Below, piece after piece: positions 5,879 to 43,000 of a DNA stretch of 64,000 bases. How positions within the stretch are numbered: the first letter of the stretch is position 1; each line of letters starts with the position of its first letter. This DNA comes from an uncultured Candidatus Saccharibacteria bacterium (lineage in GTDB: Bacteria > Patescibacteriota > Minisyncoccia > Ryanbacterales > 2-02-FULL-48-12). The position numbers were made by a program, and so were the translations under genes. Location of the stretch: the NCBI GenBank assembly GCA_964479945.1, contig CAYZNS010000006.1, positions 1,107 through 65,106 on the forward strand, in the 5' to 3' direction. The notes beneath the pieces are model-generated. The model ran no database searches. It worked only from the letters and a program-made list of their open reading frames with translations, and was not told the DNA's origin.

Positions 5879-6532
5879 TCACCGTTTCCTCTTTCCAAAC
5901 ACAAGCGCCACCAGCATGCCGAAGGTAAAGCCGCCGATGTGCGCCCACCAGGCCACACCGCCTGTAGATCCGCTTGCCACGCCCAGACTTGCGGTTCCGT
6001 TGAGCAGCTGGGTCAGAAACCATAAAAACAAAACAAGCCGCGCGGGCAAATTCATAAACGTAAAGAATACAAAAATCGGCACCAACGTAGTTACCGAATG
6101 CCCCGGGAACGCGACAAAGTAATAGCCAAGTACTGCCGCCACAGCGCCGCTCGCTCCAAGTATCGGTATGGCCGCGCCCTGCAAGAACGCGAATTGGATG
6201 AGAGCCGCCACTACGCCTCCCGCCAAATAAAAGAGAAGATAACGAATCTTCCCCAACGCCGCCTCCACATTGTCTCCGAAGACCGCAAGAAACCACATAT
6301 TGGAGATAATATGCAAAAAGCCGGCGTGCAGAAACAGAGAAATGACGAACGGGTAGAGCGATGCGGCGCCTGCCGCGCTTACGCGGGCGGGTATAAGCGC
6401 CCATTGATATATAAACTGCTCGGTATCCGGCGCTATAAGCTCAAGCCAGAATACATAGGCCGTGATACCAATGAGAAGCCATGTTGCCACCGGCACTATG
6501 CCGGCCCGCTGATGATCGCGAATGGGAAACAT
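5879..6532 (-). CDS. rhomboid-family intramembrane serine protease
   Basis: Multi-TM protein with GASGAV (GxSG) and downstream AHIGGFTFG His. Start is trimmed to the internal MFPIRDHQ because the longer ORF runs through a tRNA-like gene. Confidence 0.75.
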   Translation of the reverse strand: MFPIRDHQRAGIVPVATWLLIGITAYVFWLELIAPDTEQFIYQWALIPARVSAAGAASLYPFVISLFLHAGFLHIISNMWFLAVFGDNVEAALGKIRYLLFYLAGGVVAALIQFAFLQGAAIPILGASGAVAAVLGYYFVAFPGHSVTTLVPIFVFFTFMNLPARLVLFLWFLTQLLNGTASLGVASGSTGGVAWWAHIGGFTFGMLVALVFGKRKR

Positions 6533-6572
6533 ACGTAAACAGTAAGTACTAAGATGTGCCTTTATAATAACA

Positions 6573-6612
6573 CTGACGCAAATAAGCGGCTCAACAATTA
6601 TTCTGGCTGAGC
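6573..6612. terminator. 12-bp perfect hairpin ATAAGCGGCTCA/TGAGCCGCTTAT downstream of the tRNA-like gene
   Basis: ataagcggctcaacaattattctggctgagccgcttat seen directly. Confidence 0.4.
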
Positions 6613-6626
6613 CGCTTATGCACGAT

Positions 6627-6712
6627 GTGCACCCACTAGGAGTTGAACCTAGAACCGTCTCATTAAGAGGGAGCTGCTCTGCCTCCACCGGCTGGCGGAT
6701 GAGCTATGGGTG
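6627..6712 (-). tRNA. aberrant tRNA-like gene: perfect 7-bp acceptor stem, canonical T-arm (GGTTCAACTCC), anticodon loop CUCUUAA (CUU, Lys-like) with two stem mismatches, and a 16-nt palindromic hairpin (TCCGCC-AGCC-GGTGGA) embedded in the D-loop
   Basis: Reverse complement GCACCCATAGCTCA[TCCGCCAGCCGGTGGA]GGCAGAGCAGCTCCCTCTTAATGAGACGGTTCTAGGTTCAACTCCTAGTGGGTGCA. 86 nt fits a class-I cloverleaf only if the bracketed hairpin is an insertion. Confidence 0.35.
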
Positions 6713-6770
6713 CTTAGAAAGTGTTTACAAACTCTTCAAAAGCGAAGGTTTTGTAAACACTTTCTTAAAG
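6713..6770. repeat. Palindromic repeat family F, short copy (TTAGAAAGTGTTTACAAAC ... GTTTGTAAACACTTTCTTA)
   Basis: Same termini as the 185-bp copy at 39964-40148. Confidence 0.65.
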
Positions 6771-6833: not shown

Positions 6834-9800
6834 CTACGCGGCAGTAGGTTCCGATGCCGGCTCGCCGCCTGCGATGCCCATCAGCTTGCGAAACGTGTTT
6901 TGCTCCATGGTTTCGTGTTTGATAAGATACTCGGCAATTTCCATAAGTTTTTCCTTGCGATCGCGCACAATTCCTTTCGCTTTCTCAAGCGCCTCTTTCA
7001 TAAAACGCGCAACTTCTGTATCCACTAAGGAAGCAATTTCTTCGGAATATTTTTTCTCGTGTCCGATTTCACGCCCCAAAAACACCAAATCGCTTTGATC
7101 GTCCCATGCGACCGGACCTACTTTTTCCGACATGCCATACCGCGTTACCAAACCGCGCGCCAAACCTGTTGCTTTGCGAATGTCGTCCGAAGAGCCGGTT
7201 GTAATCTCTCCGAATACCACCTCCTCGGCGGCGTATCCGCCCAAAGAAACTGCCAATTCATCAAGGAAAAAATCGCGCGTGTACAGGTGTCGGTCTTCCG
7301 TGGGCAATTTCATGGTATATCCGCCAGCTCTACCGCGCGATACGATAGAAATTTTGTGCACCGGATCGGCGTTCGGAAGCGATGCCGCTACCAGCGCGTG
7401 CCCCGCTTCGTGAAATGCCGTAATTTTCTTTTCCTTCTCGGAAAATACTTTGCTTTTGCGCTCGGGTCCCAGCATTACTTTCTCAATAGAGACCACAAGA
7501 TCTTCCTGACTTACCGTTTTGCGGTCGTGGCGCGCCGCCAGAATGGCCGCTTCGTTCACCAGGTTCGCCAAGTCGGCGCCGGAGAACCCCGGCGTGCGCT
7601 CGGCAATCTGCCGCAAGGTTACGTCTTTGCTCATCGTCTTTTTAGCGGCATGCACCTGTAAAATTTCATCGCGCTCGGCGATATCCGGCAAATTCAATAC
7701 CACTCTGCGATCAAACCTTCCGGGGCGCAACAACGCGGGGTCCAGTACATCCGGCCGGTTTGTTGCCGCCATTATAATAACTTTGTCCGATGTTTCAAAA
7801 CCGTCCATCTCGGTTAATATCTGATTTAAGGTCTGCTCGCGCTCGTCATGTCCGCCACCCAAGCCCGCGCCGCGATGCCGCCCTACGGCGTCAATTTCAT
7901 CCACGAAAATAATCGCGGGAGCCGCTTTCTTTGCCATCTTAAATAAATCCCGTACGCGGCTGTTATGAAGCAACATCGGCTTTTCTCCGCCAAAAAACGC
8001 TTCATTTTCGCAACCAACCAGATCATACACATAATCGTTATATGGTTTTTTTGTAACTTTTTGAACGATAGGCCGCTTAAACTGATTGGGGCTTCGATAT
8101 GATAATCCGCTCCAGAAATCGCTTGTTTTTCCTACAATAATATTCCATGCCTCACCTGCCGGTAATGGTTTTTTGCCCATGCTGATTATCCTTCCCGGTT
8201 TTAAAGCCATTCTCCGCACGCCGACTTGAATGCCGTGCATGTTCAAAAGCCATGTGAGCTCGCGAATCAAGCCATGGCTAACGGATGTCATGCTTAGCTT
8301 GCCATCTTTCGTAACATACCCATCGCCGTCAGAATATCCTTTTACAAATTCACACACATACTCCCACGGAAGCTCCCATATCCACTGCGGCAGATGTTTT
8401 TGGTGACTGCCCGTCCCGCATTGCGTTTCAAAAAAACGGGCAAGCGGCTCTGCATGTACCGTGATGCGCGTGCTATTTGTAGTTGTCTCTTCCACATGTA
8501 CCGGAAGATTAAAAATCTGCTTTACCAACGAAATACAGTCGTTAATCAATGCTTTTTCATGCGAACCGAAAACAAACTGTGTATAATACGCCGTTGTGCG
8601 TCCTTCTGCCATATAATAACCCAAGATACGCATCAAATCTTTGGTAACGGCAACTTGCGCCGGAAGACCCTGCGTGATACTGCGGGACGAATACACGCGT
8701 GGCTTATGCGTGCCGTCTATCCATTTGCCAACGATTGCCTGGCTCATACCCACATGCGTGCCGATTTCTTTCTGTGTCATGGTTTCGGCATGCGCCAACG
8801 CATACGCATATTTTTCATTCGCTTGCCGGTACTGTTCCTCCCAGATCGGCAATAACGGGATCTGTTCAACATCAAACTCGTGCGCTTTTACTTTGTGTGT
8901 TGTACCAAAGCCAGGCACAAACGAAGAGCGTACTTTATAGGGAAGATTTACCAATACGTCGCCTTCCTCAAGCTCATCAGCGCGTTTTGCGCGCACGTAA
9001 TTTTTTTCCCGAACAAAAATACTATGATCCCCCGTTGTGCGAACAACGCCGCCGCGGAAATAAATCTCATATATGGAATCAACTTTATGGCGGTACACGC
9101 CTGAAAACGGTGCAAATCGGGAACCGCCCATATTAAATTTATCTTCGTTATTTTTAAAACCCCAAAAGCCAGTTCCCGCGCGTCTGGCGCTTAACGTTTC
9201 TAATCCGGAAACCTTTTTTACCATGCCGCCCTCGCCTTCCTTATAAAACTTATCCGCAACTTCCCGAATGGATAGAAGCTGCACTTTGCTGTCTTCCCGA
9301 ATAAGCACCGGCGTATCACCTGTTACAGAAGCCCCCACGCCTACAAACATTTCCACGAACTCGGAGGCCGACATATGAAAAAACGGCACGCCCGCTTCAA
9401 ACGCGACCGCTTTTGCCAGCAATGTCTTCCCCGTACCCGGCGCGCCCATCAACAGCACGCCGCGCGGAATGCGCGCTCCAATATCCAAAAACTTTTGCGG
9501 ATTTTTCAAAAAGTCCACAATTTCCAAAAGCTCTTCTTTGGCTTCTTCCGCGCCTGCCACATCCTTAAATGTTACTTTCTCGCGCGGGTCGTCCGGATTG
9601 ATAACGCGCGCGCGGGATTGCCCGAACATGAGCGCCTGCCCGTTAGAGCGCTGCACCTGGCGCATGGTAAGCCATATAAAAAGGCCGATTAAAATTATAG
9701 GCAAGAGAAACGGCAGTAGCGCCGAAAGCCAGAACGCAAGGCCGGACTGTTCTTTTACTTCAATGGTTATATCGGCAAGCATCTCGGGTGTAACCCCGTA

Positions 9801-10088
9801 ATTGCTTAATGTGTCGGACAAGGCGGCGTCCGGCTCTTTCTGCGATGTCTGCACCGTACCGTTTTTGAGCACGATTTCCAATTTATTGTTTGCCGCGGAA
9901 ATACGCAGTATCTCGCCCACGCGGATTTCTTCCACCAACCGGGAAAGCGAAACTGCTTCCGGCTTGTCCCGTTCGGCAAAAGAAGCATACAGCGCCGTGA
10001 GCACCAAGAAAATTAAAATGGCATAGAGAATATTTTTACCGAATTGCCCCATGGGGTTTTTCGGCATTTTTGGTTTTTTTAGGTTCAT
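6834..10088 (-). CDS. ftsH: ATP-dependent zinc metalloprotease FtsH interrupted by an intein (extein 628 aa + intein 456 aa)
   Basis: N-terminal TM helices. Walker A GAPGTGKT. Extein junction [10 protein letters not shown]|S...HN|SRVRDLF...[16 protein letters not shown] zinc site in the C-terminal protease domain. Confidence 0.9.
7962..9329 (-). mobile_element. Intein with LAGLIDADG homing-endonuclease domain inside ftsH (aa 254-709)
   Basis: Starts SVTGDTPV (Ser1). Block B RTTGDHS. Two LAGLIDADG motifs LGYYMAEG and [11 protein letters not shown]. Ends ...LLHN followed by Ser+1. Removing it restores the canonical FtsH sequence GVGA-SRVRDLF. Confidence 0.8.
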
Positions 10089-10265: not shown

Positions 10266-11246
10266 CTATACCATGGATAGCGAGCTTTCCTGCAACCCAA
10301 CTGAAAGCATATTCTTAAAATCATCCCTGGTAATACGCGTAGGAGATATATCTTTCGGGTTAATACCGCCATTCTGAAGAGAATTCGTCGCGGGGTCATA
10401 ATACCATTCCGGTACTATGTGCAATCTCCCGGAACTCATAAGCTCATATTCGTTTACCTCCGCCCGCACGCCTGCCCGCGTCATCTCTTCCGCGCGCACA
10501 AGCGCCGCCAACGCCTTTAAGCTGATGCGCTTCGCCGGGCGCGTTAAAATATTCACGTGACCGGACGGCAACCACTGCGCTACCACGTCGTACTTGCCGC
10601 CGTTTTGCGACCGCAAATAACCGGCCATGCTTGCGTTATTCGACTCAAGCATTACAACGCGCAATTTCTTTTTTTGTTGGCGTATTTCAAGTTCATCTAC
10701 TTTTCCCGTGCGCATAAGATCCTTAAATTCCCGCGGCAATTCCTCCGTACGGCGCACTTCCTCCTTATAGTGCGCCACTAACAACGGTATTATCACATCC
10801 ACGACTCGCGCGGGTTCCTTTGCAAGCACTTTATTCACATTCGCCACAAGCGCCGAGAGGCCAAACGCGCGATCAAGCGGATCGCTTGATATTGTCCCTT
10901 TTCCATAAAAATCATCTCTGCGCACGTATTCCAACAGCTTCGCCAACGCGGGATTACCAGAAACGCCAAGATACGATGAAACCAGGTCTGATGCCGTTGT
11001 TTTTTCTTTTACCGCATGATGATCAAATCGCCCGCCGCCAATGTCAATCAACACGACCCCCTCCGCATCAAGGCGTACTTCCGTAGCCCCGAGCGGCAGC
11101 GACTGCATTACTTCAATGCGTGCGTCTTTGATACACGGAAACCGTTCTCCGCCAAATTTTTTCAATATGAAAATGGCCGCAAGAGTATCCGGTTGGGGAC
11201 GTGTGGGTAAAATAATTCTATTGTAGAAAACTTGTTCTTTTTGCAT
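10266..11246 (-). CDS. hypothetical protein with degenerate DHH-phosphoesterase-like motifs
   Basis: TRPQPD (cf. DHH motif I RPDPD) and DIGGGRFDHH (DHH motif III). Weak assignment. Confidence 0.35.
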   Translation of the reverse strand: MQKEQVFYNRIILPTRPQPDTLAAIFILKKFGGERFPCIKDARIEVMQSLPLGATEVRLDAEGVVLIDIGGGRFDHHAVKEKTTASDLVSSYLGVSGNPALAKLLEYVRRDDFYGKGTISSDPLDRAFGLSALVANVNKVLAKEPARVVDVIIPLLVAHYKEEVRRTEELPREFKDLMRTGKVDELEIRQQKKKLRVVMLESNNASMAGYLRSQNGGKYDVVAQWLPSGHVNILTRPAKRISLKALAALVRAEEMTRAGVRAEVNEYELMSSGRLHIVPEWYYDPATNSLQNGGINPKDISPTRITRDDFKNMLSVGLQESSLSMV

Positions 11247-11303: not shown

Positions 11304-12359
11304 CTACCATCTGCGATTTTTGGAAATCGGAGGAAATTTCACCACCATATCTTTCAACTCAAACAAGGAAAAACTTGTGGGTGTTGTCTTACTATAGTTT
11401 CTCCCTCCATTCAATAACATCCCCTGATTCAGGGCATAATACCACTGACCGGGTTCCTGTGCACAAAGATGTTGTGCCAACTCTCGCAAGTCAGCCCCAT
11501 TAGTCAACACGGCGGAATGTCCCGTTGTTTTGCGAACAACGAGCACATCCCCTATTGAACGTGCTACCAATTTCACCAGCTGGTCACGATCGGTTTCCAA
11601 AATACGAACAATCAAACCGTTCCTCCCCAAAAATTGGTTCACGCCGGTTTGCCATTTAATGTTACGCGCATATTCTTCCATCCTTCCCTGTTCTTCTTTT
11701 ATGCGCTTCCATCCGGCAATCCACCACCCCGCCTTTTCGCAAATATCCTCAACTGCATACCCAAGCCGCCACATACCCCGCGCGTATGCGGCCGGCGTAA
11801 ACGGCGCCATTGAGCATTTTTTCACTTGCTCCAATAGAGCCGCGAGCCGCTCTTCACCTGCCATAGTGGCATCTTTCCGCTCAAATTCTTCCAATTCCTG
11901 CTCGGAAAGATACACTTCCACTACGTGCACCGCACGCGCAAACACTTCCGCGTCATCATACTGCGGCAGCTCATAAAGCTCCCGAAGTACCAAGGGAATT
12001 GCCATGTGCGGCTGTTTCAAGTGGCCGGTAGCATTATTCTTGTTGAGCAAGAACACAAACCTTTGTTCAGCCACATTGAGGCGCAGATAAAGCTGTGTAA
12101 CAACAGCCTCTGCAGCAGAACCAAACTGCTCTGATCGGTTGTATTTCTCGGGCCCTATGTCTATGGGAAGAATATTCTCTTCCCTCCAATGCGCCAACTG
12201 AGCAATTGTGCAGTCTGGTATCGGATCAAACCGGACATTTTCTATTGGCTCTGCCCGGCGGCGCTCCACAAGAGCTACGGCGCCGATCTTATCAATCGGC
12301 GGCTTATCGGGAACGATTACCGCAACCCAACGGCTGACATCCTCCAGATTATCCATCAC
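11304..12359 (-). CDS. hypothetical protein
   Basis: Long ORF, no recognisable motifs. Confidence 0.45.
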   Translation of the reverse strand: MMDNLEDVSRWVAVIVPDKPPIDKIGAVALVERRRAEPIENVRFDPIPDCTIAQLAHWREENILPIDIGPEKYNRSEQFGSAAEAVVTQLYLRLNVAEQRFVFLLNKNNATGHLKQPHMAIPLVLRELYELPQYDDAEVFARAVHVVEVYLSEQELEEFERKDATMAGEERLAALLEQVKKCSMAPFTPAAYARGMWRLGYAVEDICEKAGWWIAGWKRIKEEQGRMEEYARNIKWQTGVNQFLGRNGLIVRILETDRDQLVKLVARSIGDVLVVRKTTGHSAVLTNGADLRELAQHLCAQEPGQWYYALNQGMLLNGGRNYSKTTPTSFSLFELKDMVVKFPPISKNRRW

Positions 12360-13398: not shown

Positions 13399-16300
13399 AT
13401 GCCCCGAAAGAAAAAAATTGTCTCCGATGCCAGCGACGCGCTGGAAATTCTGCGCGAAGCGTTTTCTCCGTACCATACAAAAAAATACGGAATGCCGCGC
13501 TTTGCGGAGCTGGGAAAGAAACCGCGCATACGACTCGTTGCCGCTAAGGAAAATGGATATGCAGGAGAAAAGGATCCCTATCTTGAAAATCCGGCTTCGG
13601 GGGCTGAAGAAAACAACAACACTCCCCCTGCGTCGGAACCGAAAGCAACTCTTGAACCATTAATCCGCAACGTGCAAGAAGGAACATTAAAACCGGAACA
13701 ACAGAAGAAAACCGTGGATAAAAAGCCATCGGGCGGCGCTTTATCGCTGGAAGATCTGAAAAAATACAACGAGATGCGGCTGGAACGGATGGAGGCCATT
13801 CCAAAACCGCCGCCGCAACCCTCTCCCGAAGAATTAAAAACAAAAATAGAAGTCGCCGCGCGCGGACGGGCAGAAATGCAACCCCCGGCTCAAGAAGCGA
13901 AGATACTATGGGAAAAAACACAGGAAGAACCGCAAAAGCAATCAGTTGAACAGTCATCCGCGCCCGTTCAACCGGACCGGCTTAAGATTATAGAAGAACA
14001 AGACGGCAGCTTTAGCCTGGAAGACGAGGAAGGCAATCTTAGAGCGGGCAGCCTTTCCAAAGCAGACGCGGAAAAGTATTCTGATCCCGATAAGATACAA
14101 GAATTGTACGACAAAACATATCTTGAAGAAGACATTGAGCGGGATATCGCGCAGCTGCACCGCCGGGCGCCGCGAGAGCAGACAACGCAAGACATGGTTG
14201 GAAAAGAACTTCTCAAGCGTTCCGGCATAAAAGACCTTACCGCCAAAGGCAAAGGGTTTCGCGTTGACATAGACAATAAACTCTACCAGCACATAGCTTC
14301 TGAAGAGGAAGCAAAACGGGTAGCGGATGTTATCAAATCGGGAAAAATGCCGGATCTGATAAAAGGAGAAGACGGCCCGTATCGTCTGCGAAATGACGAA
14401 TCTGCCGCGGAAAAAGAACGAGTGGCTGCTTTACATAAAAAAGCAGAAGATCTCCATGCGCAAAAATCCAAACTCTCGCCGGAAGATCAGAAGCGACTTT
14501 ATGACCTGACGGCCAAAATAAACGCGCAATTTGAAACGCAAAGTCAGGAAGGCCGAGTTCCTGCTACGGAAGCAACACCAATTCCTCCTGATGCTGATAA
14601 ACAAGCATTGGAAGTATTGCAAGAGATAGTATCGGAAGAGTCTCGTAAAAAACCGGAGCCGCCTATGGTGAGCCATAAAGAAACGCCGGTGAAAGTTGAA
14701 GCTGCCACGGGCGGACAAGCGGAAATAAAGGCCCCGGAAATGCCGCAAGCAGTTCCTGATCTTGGCACGCCATCGCTGGAGGAGGTGGAGAAACAGCTTT
14801 CCGAAAGCATGAAAACAAAAGTTGGCGCGCCGGAAAAAGCCGTGCCCACCGGCAGGCAGGCGCCGGAGCCGCCGCTGGCAGAGATCCCGAAACCGGAACT
14901 CAAAAAATCGGAGGCGGCAAAAGCGAAGGAGGCGAAGAATTTAAAACCGGAAGGCATCCGCTTGAGCGATTTGCCGCCGGAAGAACAGGAAAAGGCAAAA
15001 GTAGAAGCGGCAAAAGTTTCGTTTGAAGAAAAAACAAAATTACTGCTCAAAGAAATTGATTCGCCCGGCGGATGGTCAAGGGAAAAAGGGCAGGAAGTTT
15101 TAGCGCGGCAACTGGCACGAGAAAAAGGATACAGCGCCGAGGCAATTCAAAAGAGTATTGACGAACTGCGTTCGCGAGAGAAAGATATAAGCCACCGCGA
15201 ACGCCGCATGGTAGGACGGCTCGGGCTTGCCAAAAAACTCATTGAAGAAGAACTTGGCGCGACAACAAAAACGGAGGAAAAGAAAGAAGAAACCAAGCGC
15301 AGGCCTTACACAATAAATGAAACCGGCGACATTGAGCTTGAGAAAAGCGAGTACGCCGAAGTGAAAGAAACCGCCGTCGGCAAAGCATTTTCTGAAAAGT
15401 TCGGCATCACGGCGGAAGAATTGGCGCGCATGGAAGGTTTCCGCGATCTTTCAGACGGCCAGCAACTGCTTGTATTGCGCAACCTTGATCAGCTTACACG
15501 CGGGCGCATTGAAGAAGAAGCGGCTACCATTTACAAGGAAGGTACGCAACACAGTAAATTCCTGGGCAGAATATTCCGCGGCGTTACGGAAGGAATAACC
15601 GGAAAAGAATATAAAACACTTGCCGCCAAAAAACAAACGGAAGAAGCGATACGGACCGGCGGCATTGCCCTGCACGGCGCACACCTTGCATGGCTTACCA
15701 AAATGGCGAAAAATACTCCGGTAGAAGTAAAAGAAGATGGATCTCTGGAAATTAATTATATATATCCCGATACTTTTGGACCCGATGGCATACAAGTGGC
15801 AAAGGCATATAACACCGCTGCAACAAAATTTTCTACGATACCGCTTGCGTGGTCATGGGACACCGCAACAAATAAACAACAAAAAGAATTCGTAAAACTT
15901 GAAAAGCAATATCAAGAAGCGCGTGAAGCACTGGAGACATTGTTCGCTAAAGATTCCAATATAAAAGCGGCATCTCTTTTTGTGCACAATCTGGACAATG
16001 CCGTAAAAATGAATCAACTCCTCAACGCAAACCCGGAACTGGAAACTGCACTTCAACAAGTAGATTCAAAACGCACGTGGAAAGAATTTGCAAAAGGTGT
16101 TGGTAAATCACTTAGTGAAAAAGGTGCGTTTGCCGGAGCGGGTTACGTTACCCGATACGCCACCATAAGCTTGTTCGGACTAGCCGCCGCACCAGCCGCA
16201 GCTGGTGTAATAAAAGGCATCCGATCAACAATGAAAGGAGCGGAAAATTTCCGCGAGGAGAAAAAATTGCGCAGGAACAGCACTGCCCGAAAAGAAAAGG

Positions 16301-17388
16301 CGGGAATGGATAAGGAACTACTCGGTAAAAAAGATTTCGTTGACGCTGAAAATCTTAACGGAAGAATTGAGTTCCTTCTGGAAAAGATCAATACAGACCA
16401 TGTGCCAACCCGCCATGACCGCCATGTAGAACATCTGGACAAATTACTGCAATACACGCACGCAAAATTAAAAGATGGTTACATAAATTTCGGCACCAAA
16501 GACAAAAATCTGCAAAACCAATTTGAACTTCTTACAAACTTGAGTAAAGCCCAAGGATACCTTTTCATGCACCTCAATAATACAGGAGCTCAAGACAAGC
16601 AAGACAAGATGGTTGCAAAGGCTTTGGAACTTCACAAACGAAGAGTTTCCGGGGAAAAGAGAAAATATTTGGCGGTACAGTTTGGCAAAGGGGCTCTCAT
16701 AGGCGCATCATTCGCCGCAGGCGGTTGGATTACGCGCCATCTCATGGAAGAGAATGGTTTCTTCTCAAAAGCAGCAGAAGCTGCAAAGGATACCGCCGCG
16801 CCGCCCGAAAACCTGCCGCTAAAGCCGGAGATAGAACCAACACCCGTACTGCCAGCGGAAAAAGCGGCGAAAGCCCCCGCCTGGCAGCCGCTGGAAAAAC
16901 AAACGCCGCAATGGGAACCGTTGGATAATGCAGACGCGGGAACGGGCAGAAAAGGGCTGCCGGCATGGGAACCAGCGGAGAAAGCTTCGGACGCAATTTC
17001 CGCTGCGGAAAAAACAATGACGCTTTCCATTGCGGCGCGAGGGCCGGAGGGTACGCTTATTGATGAGCTTCAAAATAATGCAAAACTGGCAAAAGAATAC
17101 GGGTGGGATGGAACATCTGATATAAAAACATGGGCAGGCGGCGAAGCACACCGTATGTGGCTGGAACATGCGCATAAGGCCGTGAAAAATCCCGATGTAC
17201 TTAACCAAATGAAAAAACTTGGATATCTGAAAGGCCTTTCAAAAACACAAATGGAAGATGAAGATATTGTACTCGGCCGTTACAAAGAGATGATGCTTCG
17301 CATCAAAAAAGGGTCAACTCTTTCATTTGATCCTGCAAAAAAATTACTGGATTTTTCGAAAGTACTATTTTCAAAGGCGCCTAGATAA
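13399..17388 (+). CDS. very large (1329 aa) K/E/A-rich low-complexity, probably coiled-coil hypothetical protein
   Basis: Uninterrupted 4-kb ORF with strongly biased composition. A PRKKK start is followed by long charged repeats. Confidence 0.6.
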   Translation: MPRKKKIVSDASDALEILREAFSPYHTKKYGMPRFAELGKKPRIRLVAAKENGYAGEKDPYLENPASGAEENNNTPPASEPKATLEPLIRNVQEGTLKPEQQKKTVDKKPSGGALSLEDLKKYNEMRLERMEAIPKPPPQPSPEELKTKIEVAARGRAEMQPPAQEAKILWEKTQEEPQKQSVEQSSAPVQPDRLKIIEEQDGSFSLEDEEGNLRAGSLSKADAEKYSDPDKIQELYDKTYLEEDIERDIAQLHRRAPREQTTQDMVGKELLKRSGIKDLTAKGKGFRVDIDNKLYQHIASEEEAKRVADVIKSGKMPDLIKGEDGPYRLRNDESAAEKERVAALHKKAEDLHAQKSKLSPEDQKRLYDLTAKINAQFETQSQEGRVPATEATPIPPDADKQALEVLQEIVSEESRKKPEPPMVSHKETPVKVEAATGGQAEIKAPEMPQAVPDLGTPSLEEVEKQLSESMKTKVGAPEKAVPTGRQAPEPPLAEIPKPELKKSEAAKAKEAKNLKPEGIRLSDLPPEEQEKAKVEAAKVSFEEKTKLLLKEIDSPGGWSREKGQEVLARQLAREKGYSAEAIQKSIDELRSREKDISHRERRMVGRLGLAKKLIEEELGATTKTEEKKEETKRRPYTINETGDIELEKSEYAEVKETAVGKAFSEKFGITAEELARMEGFRDLSDGQQLLVLRNLDQLTRGRIEEEAATIYKEGTQHSKFLGRIFRGVTEGITGKEYKTLAAKKQTEEAIRTGGIALHGAHLAWLTKMAKNTPVEVKEDGSLEINYIYPDTFGPDGIQVAKAYNTAATKFSTIPLAWSWDTATNKQQKEFVKLEKQYQEAREALETLFAKDSNIKAASLFVHNLDNAVKMNQLLNANPELETALQQVDSKRTWKEFAKGVGKSLSEKGAFAGAGYVTRYATISLFGLAAAPAAAGVIKGIRSTMKGAENFREEKKLRRNSTARKEKAGMDKELLGKKDFVDAENLNGRIEFLLEKINTDHVPTRHDRHVEHLDKLLQYTHAKLKDGYINFGTKDKNLQNQFELLTNLSKAQGYLFMHLNNTGAQDKQDKMVAKALELHKRRVSGEKRKYLAVQFGKGALIGASFAAGGWITRHLMEENGFFSKAAEAAKDTAAPPENLPLKPEIEPTPVLPAEKAAKAPAWQPLEKQTPQWEPLDNADAGTGRKGLPAWEPAEKASDAISAAEKTMTLSIAARGPEGTLIDELQNNAKLAKEYGWDGTSDIKTWAGGEAHRMWLEHAHKAVKNPDVLNQMKKLGYLKGLSKTQMEDEDIVLGRYKEMMLRIKKGSTLSFDPAKKLLDFSKVLFSKAPR

Positions 17389-40597: not shown

Positions 40598-43000
40598 TTA
40601 TACTTTATGCCCGCCGAATACGGCGCGGAGCGTTGAAAGAATTTTTCCGGTAAACGAAGGATTGTTTTTTGAACGCAATCGAAAAAGATATGAACCTTTT
40701 ATGATTGGTGCGGAAACGCCTAACTCCTTGGCGGTTTTCACCGTCCATGCGCCTTCACCTGTATGTGCTACTACACCAGATGCTTTTTTTAAATCCTCCC
40801 CGTATTCCTTAAAGCCTTCTTCGAGCCACCCCGTTAGACGCGAGGTAATAATACTATTCTGATTGTACACATTAGCGACATCTTTCAGGCGAAACTTAAT
40901 CGGAGATTTTTTTAGTATCGTAAATCCTTCCGCGAGCGACTGCATCATTCCATACTCAATGCCATTGTGAACCATTTTTGCAAAATGTCCGGCGCCGGAA
41001 CGCCCCATATATCCGGAAGGCGTATCGGACATCGCGTCAAAAATCGGCCTGCTTTTCTCGTATATTTCTTTTTCGCCACCGGCCATGATGGCAAATTTTC
41101 CGAGTTGAATAGAAACAGGCCCGCCGGAAACGCCGACATCAAGAAAATGTATTCCTTTCGCTTTGAGCTTTTTTGCGCGACGGACAGAATCCTTATAGAA
41201 AGAATTGCCTCCGTCAACGACGACATCTCCTCTGTCTAAGACGTATGCGAGGCCTCCTTCCCCAAAAATTACTTCATCCACGGGCTTACCGGCTGGAACC
41301 ATAAGCCATACGGCGCGCGGCGCGTGAATTTTGTCCACGAAATCTTTTAGGGAATATGCGCCGACAACGCCTTCTTTTTCAAGCGCTCTGGTGGGATCGG
41401 ACGTTTTGTTGAATCCAACGACTCTCCATTTTTTTGCGGCTAGACGCCGCGCAAGGTTCCCGCCCATTTTTCCCAAACCAATGATTCCGATTTCTCCGGC
41501 GCCGGTATCAGTTTTTTTATCTTTGGTATCTGTTCCTTCCCTCACAAAAGACGGACGTGGAATTGTGCCGGATTTGTATTCTATCAAAGGAACAAAATTG
41601 CGTTTCCAGCCATTAACAACCGGGTCAGTAAATTTCCATAAGGCCTCTACTTCTCTAGGCGAAACAAAGAAATCCTGCCTGCCCTCCATCGCCGCGAAAA
41701 GAATTTTCGCATATTCTTCCACGTATTGCGCTTTCGCTTCTTTTTCATACAAGAAGAACGAGAATGTTCTTTCTTCTACCACATGCTCAAATCCCGGCTT
41801 TTTCGTCCAGAAATGAATGATTATTTCATCGTTCGGTTCAAGGCGGAACACAATTTTATTCGGTTCATGAGGTCCGGTTTCGCAAAGATGGCAAACCTTT
41901 GGGTGCTTTAAGGTGAGCACTATTTCCTTTCGCGCCTCAGCCATTCGTTTGCCTGCCTCCATATATATCGGAATTCCTTTCCACCGCGCCTGAGCAAGCT
42001 CCGTTTGCAAGGCAAAATACGTTTCCGTCTGCGAATGCGCTTGTACGCCCTTAATGCTGTCATAGCCCGCGTACCGGGCACGATAGGTTCTGTCCTTAAG
42101 AAGCGCGTCATTCCACGGCGCGAGAGATTCAAGAATCACCGCGCGATTCTCTCGTACCGCATCCCCTCCTCCATTGGGATAGTCCATGGTTAATAGAGAA
42201 AGCATTGAAGGAATGTGATTTTGTCCGACGTCGCGCAGCGCTCCGACTGCGTCATAAAAACTCCCCCGATCTTCCACGCCAATCGTCTCGTGCAGGCGGA
42301 TGTCAATGCGGTCAATAGTGGCGTTGTCCCACGTATTTTCGAAAAGATTATTGGAAAATCTGAAATTCTCCATCCCTTGAACAATCTCCTTAAAAAGATA
42401 GTGGTCAATGCGGTATAGCTGTTCTTCTTTGAAATAAAAGGAAAGCAGCACCTGGAGTTTCCGCGCGCTTTCTAAATCCGTGCCAAAAGGTTTTTCAATA
42501 AGCATGCGGCTCCATCCAAGATTTCCCCCGCACGGCAGATTCAGTTTTACCGCCGCAAGGTTTTTAAAGATATCCCCATATGCCGCAGGCGGCACGGCCA
42601 GATAAAAAAGCTTGTTTGCGCAAACGCCCCAAGAACTCTCCATCTTGGTGATTTTTTCTGTAAGCGCGGAAAAGGATTCTTTATTTTCAAATGTTCCCGC
42701 GTGATATGAAAAATGCTCAAAAAAACGAGAAAAATCGCTTTCATTTATCCTGTCGCCGCCGCGCTTATCCACGGAGTCGCGCAGCAGTTTTTTGAACTGT
42801 TCAAGAGAAAGGTCACTCCGCGAAAAGCCGATAACCGAAAAGCGGTCGGGTAGGCGCTTTTGCTGGAACAGGCGCCAAAGCGACGGAAAAATCTTTTTTG
42901 CCGCCAAATCACCGGTTGCCCCTAAAATGACAAGAATGGAGGGTGTATGTACCCCATTAGAAGTTCGCTTTGTAGAATTGTATTCATTATTTTTTGTCAT
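40598..43000 (-). CDS. zwf: Fusion: glucose-6-phosphate dehydrogenase (N-term ~490 aa) + short 6-phosphogluconate dehydrogenase-like domain (C-term ~300 aa)
   Basis: N-terminal G6PD NADP site ILVILGATGDLAAKKIFPSLWRL and ...RIDHYLGKE-like block. C-terminal GIIGLGKMGGNLARRLAAKKWRVVGFN Rossmann plus 6PGDH C-terminal domain. Confidence 0.85.
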   Translation of the reverse strand: MTKNNEYNSTKRTSNGVHTPSILVILGATGDLAAKKIFPSLWRLFQQKRLPDRFSVIGFSRSDLSLEQFKKLLRDSVDKRGGDRINESDFSRFFEHFSYHAGTFENKESFSALTEKITKMESSWGVCANKLFYLAVPPAAYGDIFKNLAAVKLNLPCGGNLGWSRMLIEKPFGTDLESARKLQVLLSFYFKEEQLYRIDHYLFKEIVQGMENFRFSNNLFENTWDNATIDRIDIRLHETIGVEDRGSFYDAVGALRDVGQNHIPSMLSLLTMDYPNGGGDAVRENRAVILESLAPWNDALLKDRTYRARYAGYDSIKGVQAHSQTETYFALQTELAQARWKGIPIYMEAGKRMAEARKEIVLTLKHPKVCHLCETGPHEPNKIVFRLEPNDEIIIHFWTKKPGFEHVVEERTFSFFLYEKEAKAQYVEEYAKILFAAMEGRQDFFVSPREVEALWKFTDPVVNGWKRNFVPLIEYKSGTIPRPSFVREGTDTKDKKTDTGAGEIGIIGLGKMGGNLARRLAAKKWRVVGFNKTSDPTRALEKEGVVGAYSLKDFVDKIHAPRAVWLMVPAGKPVDEVIFGEGGLAYVLDRGDVVVDGGNSFYKDSVRRAKKLKAKGIHFLDVGVSGGPVSIQLGKFAIMAGGEKEIYEKSRPIFDAMSDTPSGYMGRSGAGHFAKMVHNGIEYGMMQSLAEGFTILKKSPIKFRLKDVANVYNQNSIITSRLTGWLEEGFKEYGEDLKKASGVVAHTGEGAWTVKTAKELGVSAPIIKGSYLFRLRSKNNPSFTGKILSTLRAVFGGHKV

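Follow-up and report, generated by a model that had tools for sequence, protein, structure and literature searches.

The closest described systems for the element considered here are the archaeal inteins TliVMA and PhoVMA (7qsu, 7qss, 7qst), PI-PkoII (2cw7) and PI-PfuI (1dq3), and more distantly PI-SceI (1vde), which combine a HINT splicing domain with a double-motif LAGLIDADG endonuclease. The same layout was found in a 456-residue insert that splits the gene of the membrane protease FtsH in a 64,000-nucleotide stretch of contig CAYZNS010000006.1 (the whole stretch analysed, hereafter the window), and the solved archaeal inteins are its best matches in both sequence and fold, with Foldseek E-values of 4e-22 to 3.5e-15. 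The insert has the catalytic set in common with them, namely the N-terminal nucleophile, the TxxH motif, the terminal His-Asn (HN) pair and the +1 nucleophile, at 12-18% identity over the structural alignment. However, its host is the FtsH protease rather than a V-ATPase, a DNA polymerase or a ribonucleotide reductase (RNR), it uses Ser1 and Ser+1 in place of the Cys employed by several solved inteins, and it carries an extra helix-turn-helix (HTH)-like segment of three helices. Based on the evidence given below, we propose with high confidence that the insert is a canonical class-1 intein with a LAGLIDADG homing endonuclease, splicing and homing included.

The ftsH open reading frame (ORF) occupies positions 6834..10088 of the minus strand and encodes a 1084-amino-acid (aa) precursor, in which residues 254-709 (SVTGDTPV...LLHN; window 9329..7962, minus strand) form the insert in frame. 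The initial annotation had placed a 456-aa intein at 7962-9329 within this 1084-aa ORF, and these coordinates proved exact. Excision joins Ala253 to Ser710 (precursor numbering) and gives a 628-aa FtsH with the junction ...EMFVGVGA^SRVRDLF..., the caret marking the insertion point here and below. That this product would be a normal FtsH, as annotated initially, was borne out by its gapless alignment with the T. maritima FtsH (7tdo, E=8e-185), in which FVGVGA-SRVRDLF pairs with FVGVGAARVRDLF. The insertion site lies three residues past the FVG of the pore-1 loop, with Walker A (GAPGTGKT, aa 215-222) and the pore-1 loop (MFVG, aa 247-250) just upstream, and with Walker B (IIFVDEID, aa 726-733), the sensor-1 region and second region of homology (SRH, aa 774-793) and the HEAGH zinc site all downstream. 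The earlier description of the site as lying between Walker A and Walker B therefore stands, while its wording that set the second region of homology beside Walker B needs amending, as the SRH (aa ~774-793) is located well beyond Walker B.

Judged against the curated gathering cut-offs of Pfam, the insert matches Intein_splicing (PF14890; E=1.2e-9, 38.5 bits versus a cut-off of 35.8) and LAGLIDADG_3 (PF14528; E=9e-10, 39.1 bits versus 22.5; best stretch aa 323-374), and TIGR01445 (intein_Nterm) scored 20.9, under its cut-off of 24.5. In NCBIfam, the insert matched archaeal proteins solely through their inteins, namely those of Tes, RpoA'', PolII, RNR, IF2, V-ATPase and replication factor C (RFC), and the matches obtained by phmmer in the PDB comprise PI-PkoII (1.5e-10) and the TFIIB mini-intein (4e-10), and also the V-ATPase intein 7qsu and PI-PfuI. 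The AlphaFold2 model of the intein, for which a 32-sequence alignment (A1) was the input, reached a mean predicted local distance difference test (pLDDT) score of 90.8 and a predicted template modelling (pTM) score of 0.88. Its top Foldseek matches in the PDB are all intein homing endonucleases (TliVMA 4e-22, PI-PkoII 8e-22, PhoVMA, PI-PfuI and PI-SceI), followed by mini-inteins (5o9i/5o9j, RadA intein) and free LAGLIDADG enzymes, each of which covers one sub-domain; I-DmoI and I-Tsp061I among them gave target-normalised template modelling (TM) scores of 0.59-0.72 and E-values of about 1e-6 to 1e-8, in line with the doubled alpha-beta-beta-alpha-beta-beta-alpha fold of monomeric LAGLIDADG endonucleases. 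The similarity to inteins is far beyond chance, and the predicted fold, a HINT splicing domain plus a LAGLIDADG endonuclease, agrees with the LAGLIDADG intein named by the initial annotation.

The residues on which the chemistry would depend are in place. Ser1, the TxxH motif of block B, two LAGLIDADG motifs, the terminal HN and Ser+1, all of which had been listed before, were recovered at intein positions 1, 99-102, 236-243, 329-339, 455-456 and +1, and an alignment with the intein blocks, which had been suggested as a check, found blocks A, B, F and G and both LAGLIDADG motifs present and conserved over 18 complete homologous inteins, over A1 and over a six-member alignment of the closest clades (A2). 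In A2, S1, T99, H102, E242, K311, D336, D436, H455 and N456 are invariant, and blocks F and G, which in the window lead up to PMLLHN^S with its His-Asn end and Ser+1, are kept in all 18 complete homologs. Nothing contradictory to the intein identification was met among the tests made.

Two related classes were considered and rejected. Class-3 inteins have no N-terminal nucleophile and carry a WCT triplet, with the block F Cys at position F:4; the window insert has Ser1, and by our block F alignment F:4 is Asp436, the conserved Cys following four residues later. Bacterial intein-like (BIL) domains have no endonuclease, usually lack a +1 nucleophile and reside in variable regions of non-conserved secreted proteins; here both the endonuclease and Ser+1 are present, and the insert interrupts a motif that is invariant in a conserved and essential protein.

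The host protein speaks for removal of the insert. In the ftsH ORF, TIGR01241 (FtsH_fam) is matched with 764 bits versus a cut-off of 600, in two stretches flanking the insert, and the Pfam domains Peptidase_M41, AAA and AAA_lid_3 are all matched. Compared with two intein-free orthologs, the exteins have a dN (nonsynonymous substitutions per site) of about 0.10, a dS (synonymous substitutions per site) of about 2 and a dN/dS of 0.04-0.05, values that are approximate because dS is near saturation, and these point to strong purifying selection on the ftsH exteins. The FVG pore-1 loop is the substrate-gripping element of FtsH, and a 456-aa domain at this loop should be incompatible with FtsH function unless it is removed. 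An extein dN/dS of about 0.05 thus argues that active FtsH is made and hence that the intein splices, so that we infer protein splicing of the FtsH precursor from the intact catalytic residues together with the extein dN/dS.

In the AlphaFold2 model, the HTH-like three-helix stretch (aa ~164-219; helices 164-179, 186-193 and 197-204) joins the N-terminal splicing lobe to the endonuclease. Its Pfam matches to HTH_28, MarR and HTH_3 are sub-threshold, with E about 0.03; in the 18-intein alignment the segment is conserved in bacterial FtsH/AAA inteins and missing in the archaeal RFC and primase PriS inteins. We regard it as a putative accessory DNA-recognition module, whose role may be analogous to that of the additional regions through which PI-SceI and PI-PfuI bind DNA.

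Closer relatives than the solved inteins are the allelic inteins of FtsH/YME1 proteins (L001, P0001, P0048, P0052, P0058, P0059, P0071), which interrupt their hosts at the same point, GVGA^S...HN^S(R/K)VR, are 37-64% identical to the window intein, have their domains in the same order, the HTH-like segment included, and form one clade with it in the neighbour-joining tree described below. Their annotation goes no further than 'AAA family ATPase' or 'FtsH', and in contrast to these hosts the nearest orthologs of the window protein are intein-free. A word-indexed search gave 44 matches, mostly FtsH fragments from metagenome-assembled genomes (MAGs) of Patescibacteria (Paceibacterota, Gottesmanbacteria, Nealsonbacteria) and a few from MAGs labelled Firmicutes, Deltaproteobacteria, Chloroflexi or Eisenbacteria, in which the junction also reads GVGA^SVTGDTP...LLHN^SRVRD; the allelic intein was found at exactly GVGA^S...HN^SRVRD in about 35 FtsH fragments or proteins. 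An exhaustive search of 1.84 billion cluster representatives returned 3517 matches at E<=1e-3, 46 of them at E<=1e-30. Full-length FtsH proteins with the allelic intein include P0048, P0052, P0058, P0059 and L001, the last from a Saccharibacteria MAG (1063 aa, intein 61% identical), and the nearest sampled intein is that of P0001 (64% identical). The allelic intein also occurs in the YME1-like, eukaryote-looking i-AAA proteases P0071, P0073 and P0076 (FDEMYVGVGA^SVTGDT...LLHN^SKVRSLF). By sequence, the pore-loop intein thus appears as one allele of a widespread FtsH/YME1 family, and is less unusual than first proposed. A GTDB scan with the single intein sequence returned 3 loci only, and as its exact-peptide patterns are strict it is no measure of taxonomic spread. 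On viral contigs, only distant inteins of at most 32% identity were found, mostly in giant-virus MAGs whose host genes were left uninspected, and they give no evidence of a viral vector. The FtsH entries P0036 and P0024 have the same intein with a scrambled or frameshifted interior, and P0024, which lies on a 1.15-Mb contig, ends out of frame; they are decaying pseudogenes or assembly/sequencing errors.

The sensor-1 site AA^TNRPD, both in FtsH and in archaeal CDC48-like ATPases, is taken up by inteins of a sister clade with about 40% identity to the window intein. These sensor-1 inteins (P0016, P0018, P0045, P0051, P0053-P0056) have like blocks (FFGG..P.LLHN) and the HTH-like segment, but their site is about 65 extein residues downstream, the +1 residue is Thr, and block B reads TGNH versus TGDH in the window. 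More distant members of the clade are found in archaeal RFC, secretion ATPases and PriS. RFC is a catalogued intein host in the survey of Novikova et al. (2016; PMC4760082). The inteins of archaeal RFC small subunits (P0037-P0043) are 24-28% identical over the full length and have SVTPDTP...LLHN^S junctions in the AAA+ module, but differ in their archaeal clamp-loader host and in the absence of the HTH-like segment; read by eye, their site EMNA^SDERG aligns nearer to the FtsH 'HMSA^SEF', roughly 13 residues upstream of the window site.

In a neighbour-joining tree, which has no bootstraps and is indicative, the inteins group by insertion site and the window intein is sister to that of L001; this grouping hints at the pattern expected of site-specific homing with rare ectopic moves. 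Four intein sites were seen in FtsH, namely the P-loop GTGK^T, the pore loop GVGA^S, the pre-Walker B NAP^C and the sensor-1 AA^TNRPD, and two inteins per gene occur in P0008, P0045, P0047 and P0051. The P-loop inteins (GTGK^C...HN^T) are those of P0200, P0202, P0047 and P0051, the pre-Walker B intein (NAP^CLTGDAVV) is that of P0033, and the sensor-1 inteins (AA^S...HN^TNRPD) were seen in P0016, P0018, P0045, P0051 and P0053, these FtsH genes being largely from bacteria of the candidate phyla radiation (CPR); FtsH thus looks like an intein host with several sites. In the window ftsH, the P-loop (9423..9446) and sensor-1 (7710..7769) sites are empty. A wider reading, which we hold to be speculative and on the whole improbable, is that FtsH could be an unrecognised multi-site intein hotspot in CPR and beyond, where one clade (pore-loop plus sensor-1) moved from one analogous AAA+/P-loop motif to another, even between domains of life, and possibly also acts as a conditional switch on the only FtsH of the window.

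The spliced window FtsH is 88% identical to that of Parcubacteria group bacterium Gr01-1014_70, 79% to that of a Ryanbacteria MAG and about 67% to those of Giovannonibacteria, and by this measure the host shows itself to be a Parcubacteria-type (CPR/Patescibacteria) bacterium. Of the 120 best FtsH orthologs, the window protein, P0200 and P0202 alone are longer than 1000 aa, and the window protein is the single one with the intein reported here; in P0200 and P0202 it is the Walker A P-loop that is interrupted, by a different LAGLIDADG intein with Cys1 (GTGK^CVTGDT...HN^TLLAKA), and the pore loop has no insert. Relatives that align through the insert, which would have spoken for a native FtsH sequence at this site, were not found: nine orthologs of 84-88% identity and 612-629 aa (P0192-P0199, P0201) are intein-free and read GVGASRVRDLF without interruption. 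The candidate homing target reconstructed from the window is GAAATGTTTGTAGGCGTGGGGGCT^AGCCGCGTACGGGATTTATTTAAG. The target peptide is identical in the intein-free alleles L005-L007, and their DNA differs at synonymous positions only, with 22-24 of the 30 central nucleotides identical.

The host exteins of the carriers of the allelic intein are 32-69% identical to those of the window, and intein and extein identities track each other for L001, P0048 and P0052; for L001 they are roughly equal (intein 61%, extein 58-69%). Likewise, dN versus L001 is 0.31 for the intein and 0.30 for the exteins, so that the element is not decaying, and the synonymous sites of the intein are saturated versus its nearest relative. 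Given the many intein-free close orthologs, acquisition in the window lineage from an unsampled donor is favoured. Several observations weigh against the proposed mobile and splicing element and have to be set beside it. The parity of intein and extein divergence from L001 would also fit the alternative of a long vertical residence with multiple precise losses, and the searches made found no intein donor closer than 64% identity. The GC content at third codon positions (GC3) of the intein, 0.463 versus 0.584 in the exteins, lies within the range of the window genes (0.513 +/- 0.074) and is a weak sign of recent import. The block F His of the HNF motif of many inteins is replaced here, as family-wide, by E-A-F, a replacement that is probably tolerated. 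Finally, the 64-kb window contains neither another ftsH nor another member of this intein family; the lack of a second ftsH there speaks for a functional interrupted gene and hence for splicing, but an intein-free ftsH could lie elsewhere in the genome.

The mechanism that we propose follows established intein chemistry as read from the intact residues. The 1084-aa precursor would be translated and the two HINT half-domains would fold together, upon which Ser1 would undergo an N-O acyl shift helped by T99 and H102 of block B. The C-extein Ser+1 would then attack the ester to form the branched intermediate, Asn456 would cyclise with the help of His455 and free the intein, and an O-N shift would produce the normal peptide bond ...GVGA-SRVRD... 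of an active 628-aa FtsH. The freed intein could act as a monomeric double-motif LAGLIDADG endonuclease, probably aided by the HTH-like three-helix module, which would cut intein-free ftsH around GTGGGGGCT^AGCCGCGTA; the break would then be mended with the intein-bearing copy as template, and the element would spread by homing. Because the motif encoded at the site is invariant and essential to function, an imprecise deletion of the intein would be lethal, which would explain the persistence of the intein.

The homing half of this proposal is the more exposed to a rival, in which the splicing domain is active and the endonuclease is dead, making the element a vertically inherited passenger on the way to a mini-intein. 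Mini-inteins with the endonuclease deleted do occupy the same site in other lineages (P0030, P0032, P0033, P0068, P0069, P0075), the LAGLIDADG motifs are degenerate in some relatives such as P0058 and P0034, and the similar divergence of intein and extein from L001 is compatible with long vertical co-descent. In the window copy, however, both endonuclease acids (E242, D336) and K311 are preserved, the model is highly confident over the entire endonuclease domain, and the intein dN, no higher than that of the exteins, indicates no decay; the closest host orthologs are also without the intein, which argues for movement. We consider a dead endonuclease unlikely, though not far-fetched. An intact homing endonuclease also suits a selfish element better than an intein domesticated as a conditional switch, whose splicing at the pore loop would respond to redox state, temperature or metal ions and so time FtsH activity. 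Other inteins are known to splice conditionally (discussed in PMC4760082 and PMC10663303), an unspliced precursor should be inactive with an insertion directly past the substrate-translocating pore-1 loop, and a block F Cys (GCENEAFF) is conserved in most FtsH-type inteins. Yet nothing specific to this intein favours a switch, the nucleophiles Ser1 and Ser+1 cannot form the known Cys1/Cys+1 disulfide traps, and the closest orthologs manage without the intein, which is thus not needed for FtsH regulation in the lineage; such a role is therefore quite improbable.

Since the sequence belongs to a metagenome-assembled genome and is known from DNA alone, it could also be asked whether the insert is a permanent, non-splicing BIL-like HINT domain or a chimera of the assembly. 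The identical 1084-aa protein is, however, found on two contigs from different sources, a 65.7-kb contig of NCBI (P0191) and one of the Joint Genome Institute (JGI) metagenome 3300022563 (L004), the insert keeps the reading frame exactly and has invariant FtsH residues on either side, and the same junction recurs in dozens of independent assemblies. All splicing residues including Ser+1 are intact, which together with the endonuclease sets the insert apart from the BIL domains of variable secreted proteins described above, and a retained 456-aa domain would not fit the hexameric AAA+ ring, against which stands the extein dN/dS of about 0.05. We regard this possibility as hardly credible, and a class-1 intein that splices and homes is retained as the preferred reading. 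The features of the locus on which it is based are collected in Table 1.

Table 1. Positions of the intein, its sequence blocks and the flanking FtsH motifs in the window (residues of the intein are numbered from Ser1 unless precursor numbering is indicated)
Feature	Window position	Strand	Evidence or content
FtsH N-extein (precursor aa 1-253)	9330..10088	-	Membrane/periplasmic region, Walker A and pore-1 loop; TIGR01241 match
Walker A GAPGTGKT	9423..9446	-	N-extein
Pore-1 loop MFVG	9339..9350	-	N-extein
Intein (precursor aa 254-709), HINT domain split by LAGLIDADG endonuclease	7962..9329	-	Pfam, PDB phmmer, AlphaFold2 model, Foldseek
Block A, Ser1 as N-terminal splicing nucleophile	9300..9329	-	S1-V-T-G-D-T-P invariant in A2 and in 18 complete homologs
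Block B, TxxH motif T99-G-D-H102	9012..9044	-	T99 and H102 invariant in A2
HTH-like segment (intein aa 184-206)	8712..8780	-	AlphaFold2 helices; sub-threshold Pfam matches
First LAGLIDADG motif LGYYMAEG (aa 236-243), catalytic acid E242	8601..8624	-	G237 and G243 invariant; A241/E242 at least 90% conserved in A1
Endonuclease block D QKHLP, K311 and P314	8388..8402	-	Both at least 90% conserved in A1, invariant in A2
Second LAGLIDADG motif (aa 329-339, including SDGDG), catalytic acid D336	8313..8345	-	G335-D336-G337 at least 90% conserved in A1
Block F, D436	7986..8033	-	V434-Y435-D436 and N442-E-A-F-F-G-G448 invariant in A2
Block G PMLLHN, penultimate H455 and terminal N456	7962..7979	-	L453-L-H-N456 invariant in A2
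FtsH C-extein (precursor aa 710-1084, stop 6834..6836)	6834..7961	-	Ser+1 nucleophile, Walker B, SRH, lid domain, M41 protease
SRVRDLF, Ser+1 nucleophile	7941..7961	-	C-extein
Walker B IIFVDEID	7890..7913	-	C-extein
Sensor-1/SRH AATNRPD...RFD	7710..7769	-	C-extein
M41 zinc site HEAGH	7398..7412	-	C-extein

The start of ftsH is ambiguous (10053..10088, minus strand), as JGI gives 1084 aa and the NCBI entry P0191 gives 1072 aa from Met13 (MGQFGKN..., 12 codons downstream); a longer, Lys-rich FtsH N-terminus is retained in the orthologs P0192 and P0193. Downstream of ftsH, the window has a tRNA and a rhomboid protease, so that the downstream synteny differs from that of relatives even at 85-88% FtsH identity: the relatives, whether intein-free or with a P-loop intein, have a PaaX_M or weak Cas2-like gene after ftsH (L005 2717..3346, L006 4918..5415, L007 6224..6853). 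The tRNA (6628..6713, minus strand) lies 120 nucleotides past the ftsH stop and overlaps the 5' extension of the 269-aa rhomboid ORF (5879..6688, minus strand), which JGI calls as 217 aa, and the long version with its GTG start is probably wrong. Directly upstream of ftsH are two ORFs without a Pfam match, 10266..11246 (minus strand, 326 aa) and 11304..12359 (minus strand, 351 aa), and in L006, too, genes of about this size (320 and 378 aa) come before ftsH. At E<=1e-5, nothing in Pfam matched the ORF 13399..17388 (plus strand, 1329 aa); L006 and L007 also have a gene of such length (1313-1553 aa) upstream of ftsH, its likeness to the window ORF being one of length alone. Farther away, the ORF 40598..43000 (minus strand, 800 aa) is a glucose-6-phosphate dehydrogenase (G6PD_N, G6PD_C) fused to a 6-phosphogluconate dehydrogenase (NAD_binding_2, 6PGD).

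Class-1 inteins and LAGLIDADG endonucleases are well-known families, the host and the site are less familiar, and many allelic copies are already public and unannotated. In the searchable, incomplete literature on inteins, CPR/Patescibacteria and AAA metalloproteases, no description of an FtsH intein was found; papers on the jumbo phage MIJ3, a prasinovirus, diplonemids and Floydiella mention FtsH and inteins, each separately. The main text of the prokaryotic survey lists LonB, RFC and others as hosts and does not list FtsH (Novikova et al., 2016; PMC4760082), and FtsH is likewise unmentioned in the main texts of papers on the eukaryotic intein landscape and on Anaeramoeba.

In conclusion, the work reported here adds an essential membrane AAA+ protease to the hosts of inteins and lends support to the idea that invariant ATPase motifs, and not just replication proteins, are what inteins target. 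For annotation, the 1084-aa product is best named 'intein-containing FtsH', as it is neither aberrant nor fused, and the intein should be excised before orthology or phylogeny is assessed. With Ser1 and Ser+1, a presumably mesophilic bacterial source and close intein-free alleles, the intein could suit studies of splicing and homing or protein engineering. At the level of the organism, the finding means that streamlined CPR genomes tolerate inteins in a single-copy essential gene.

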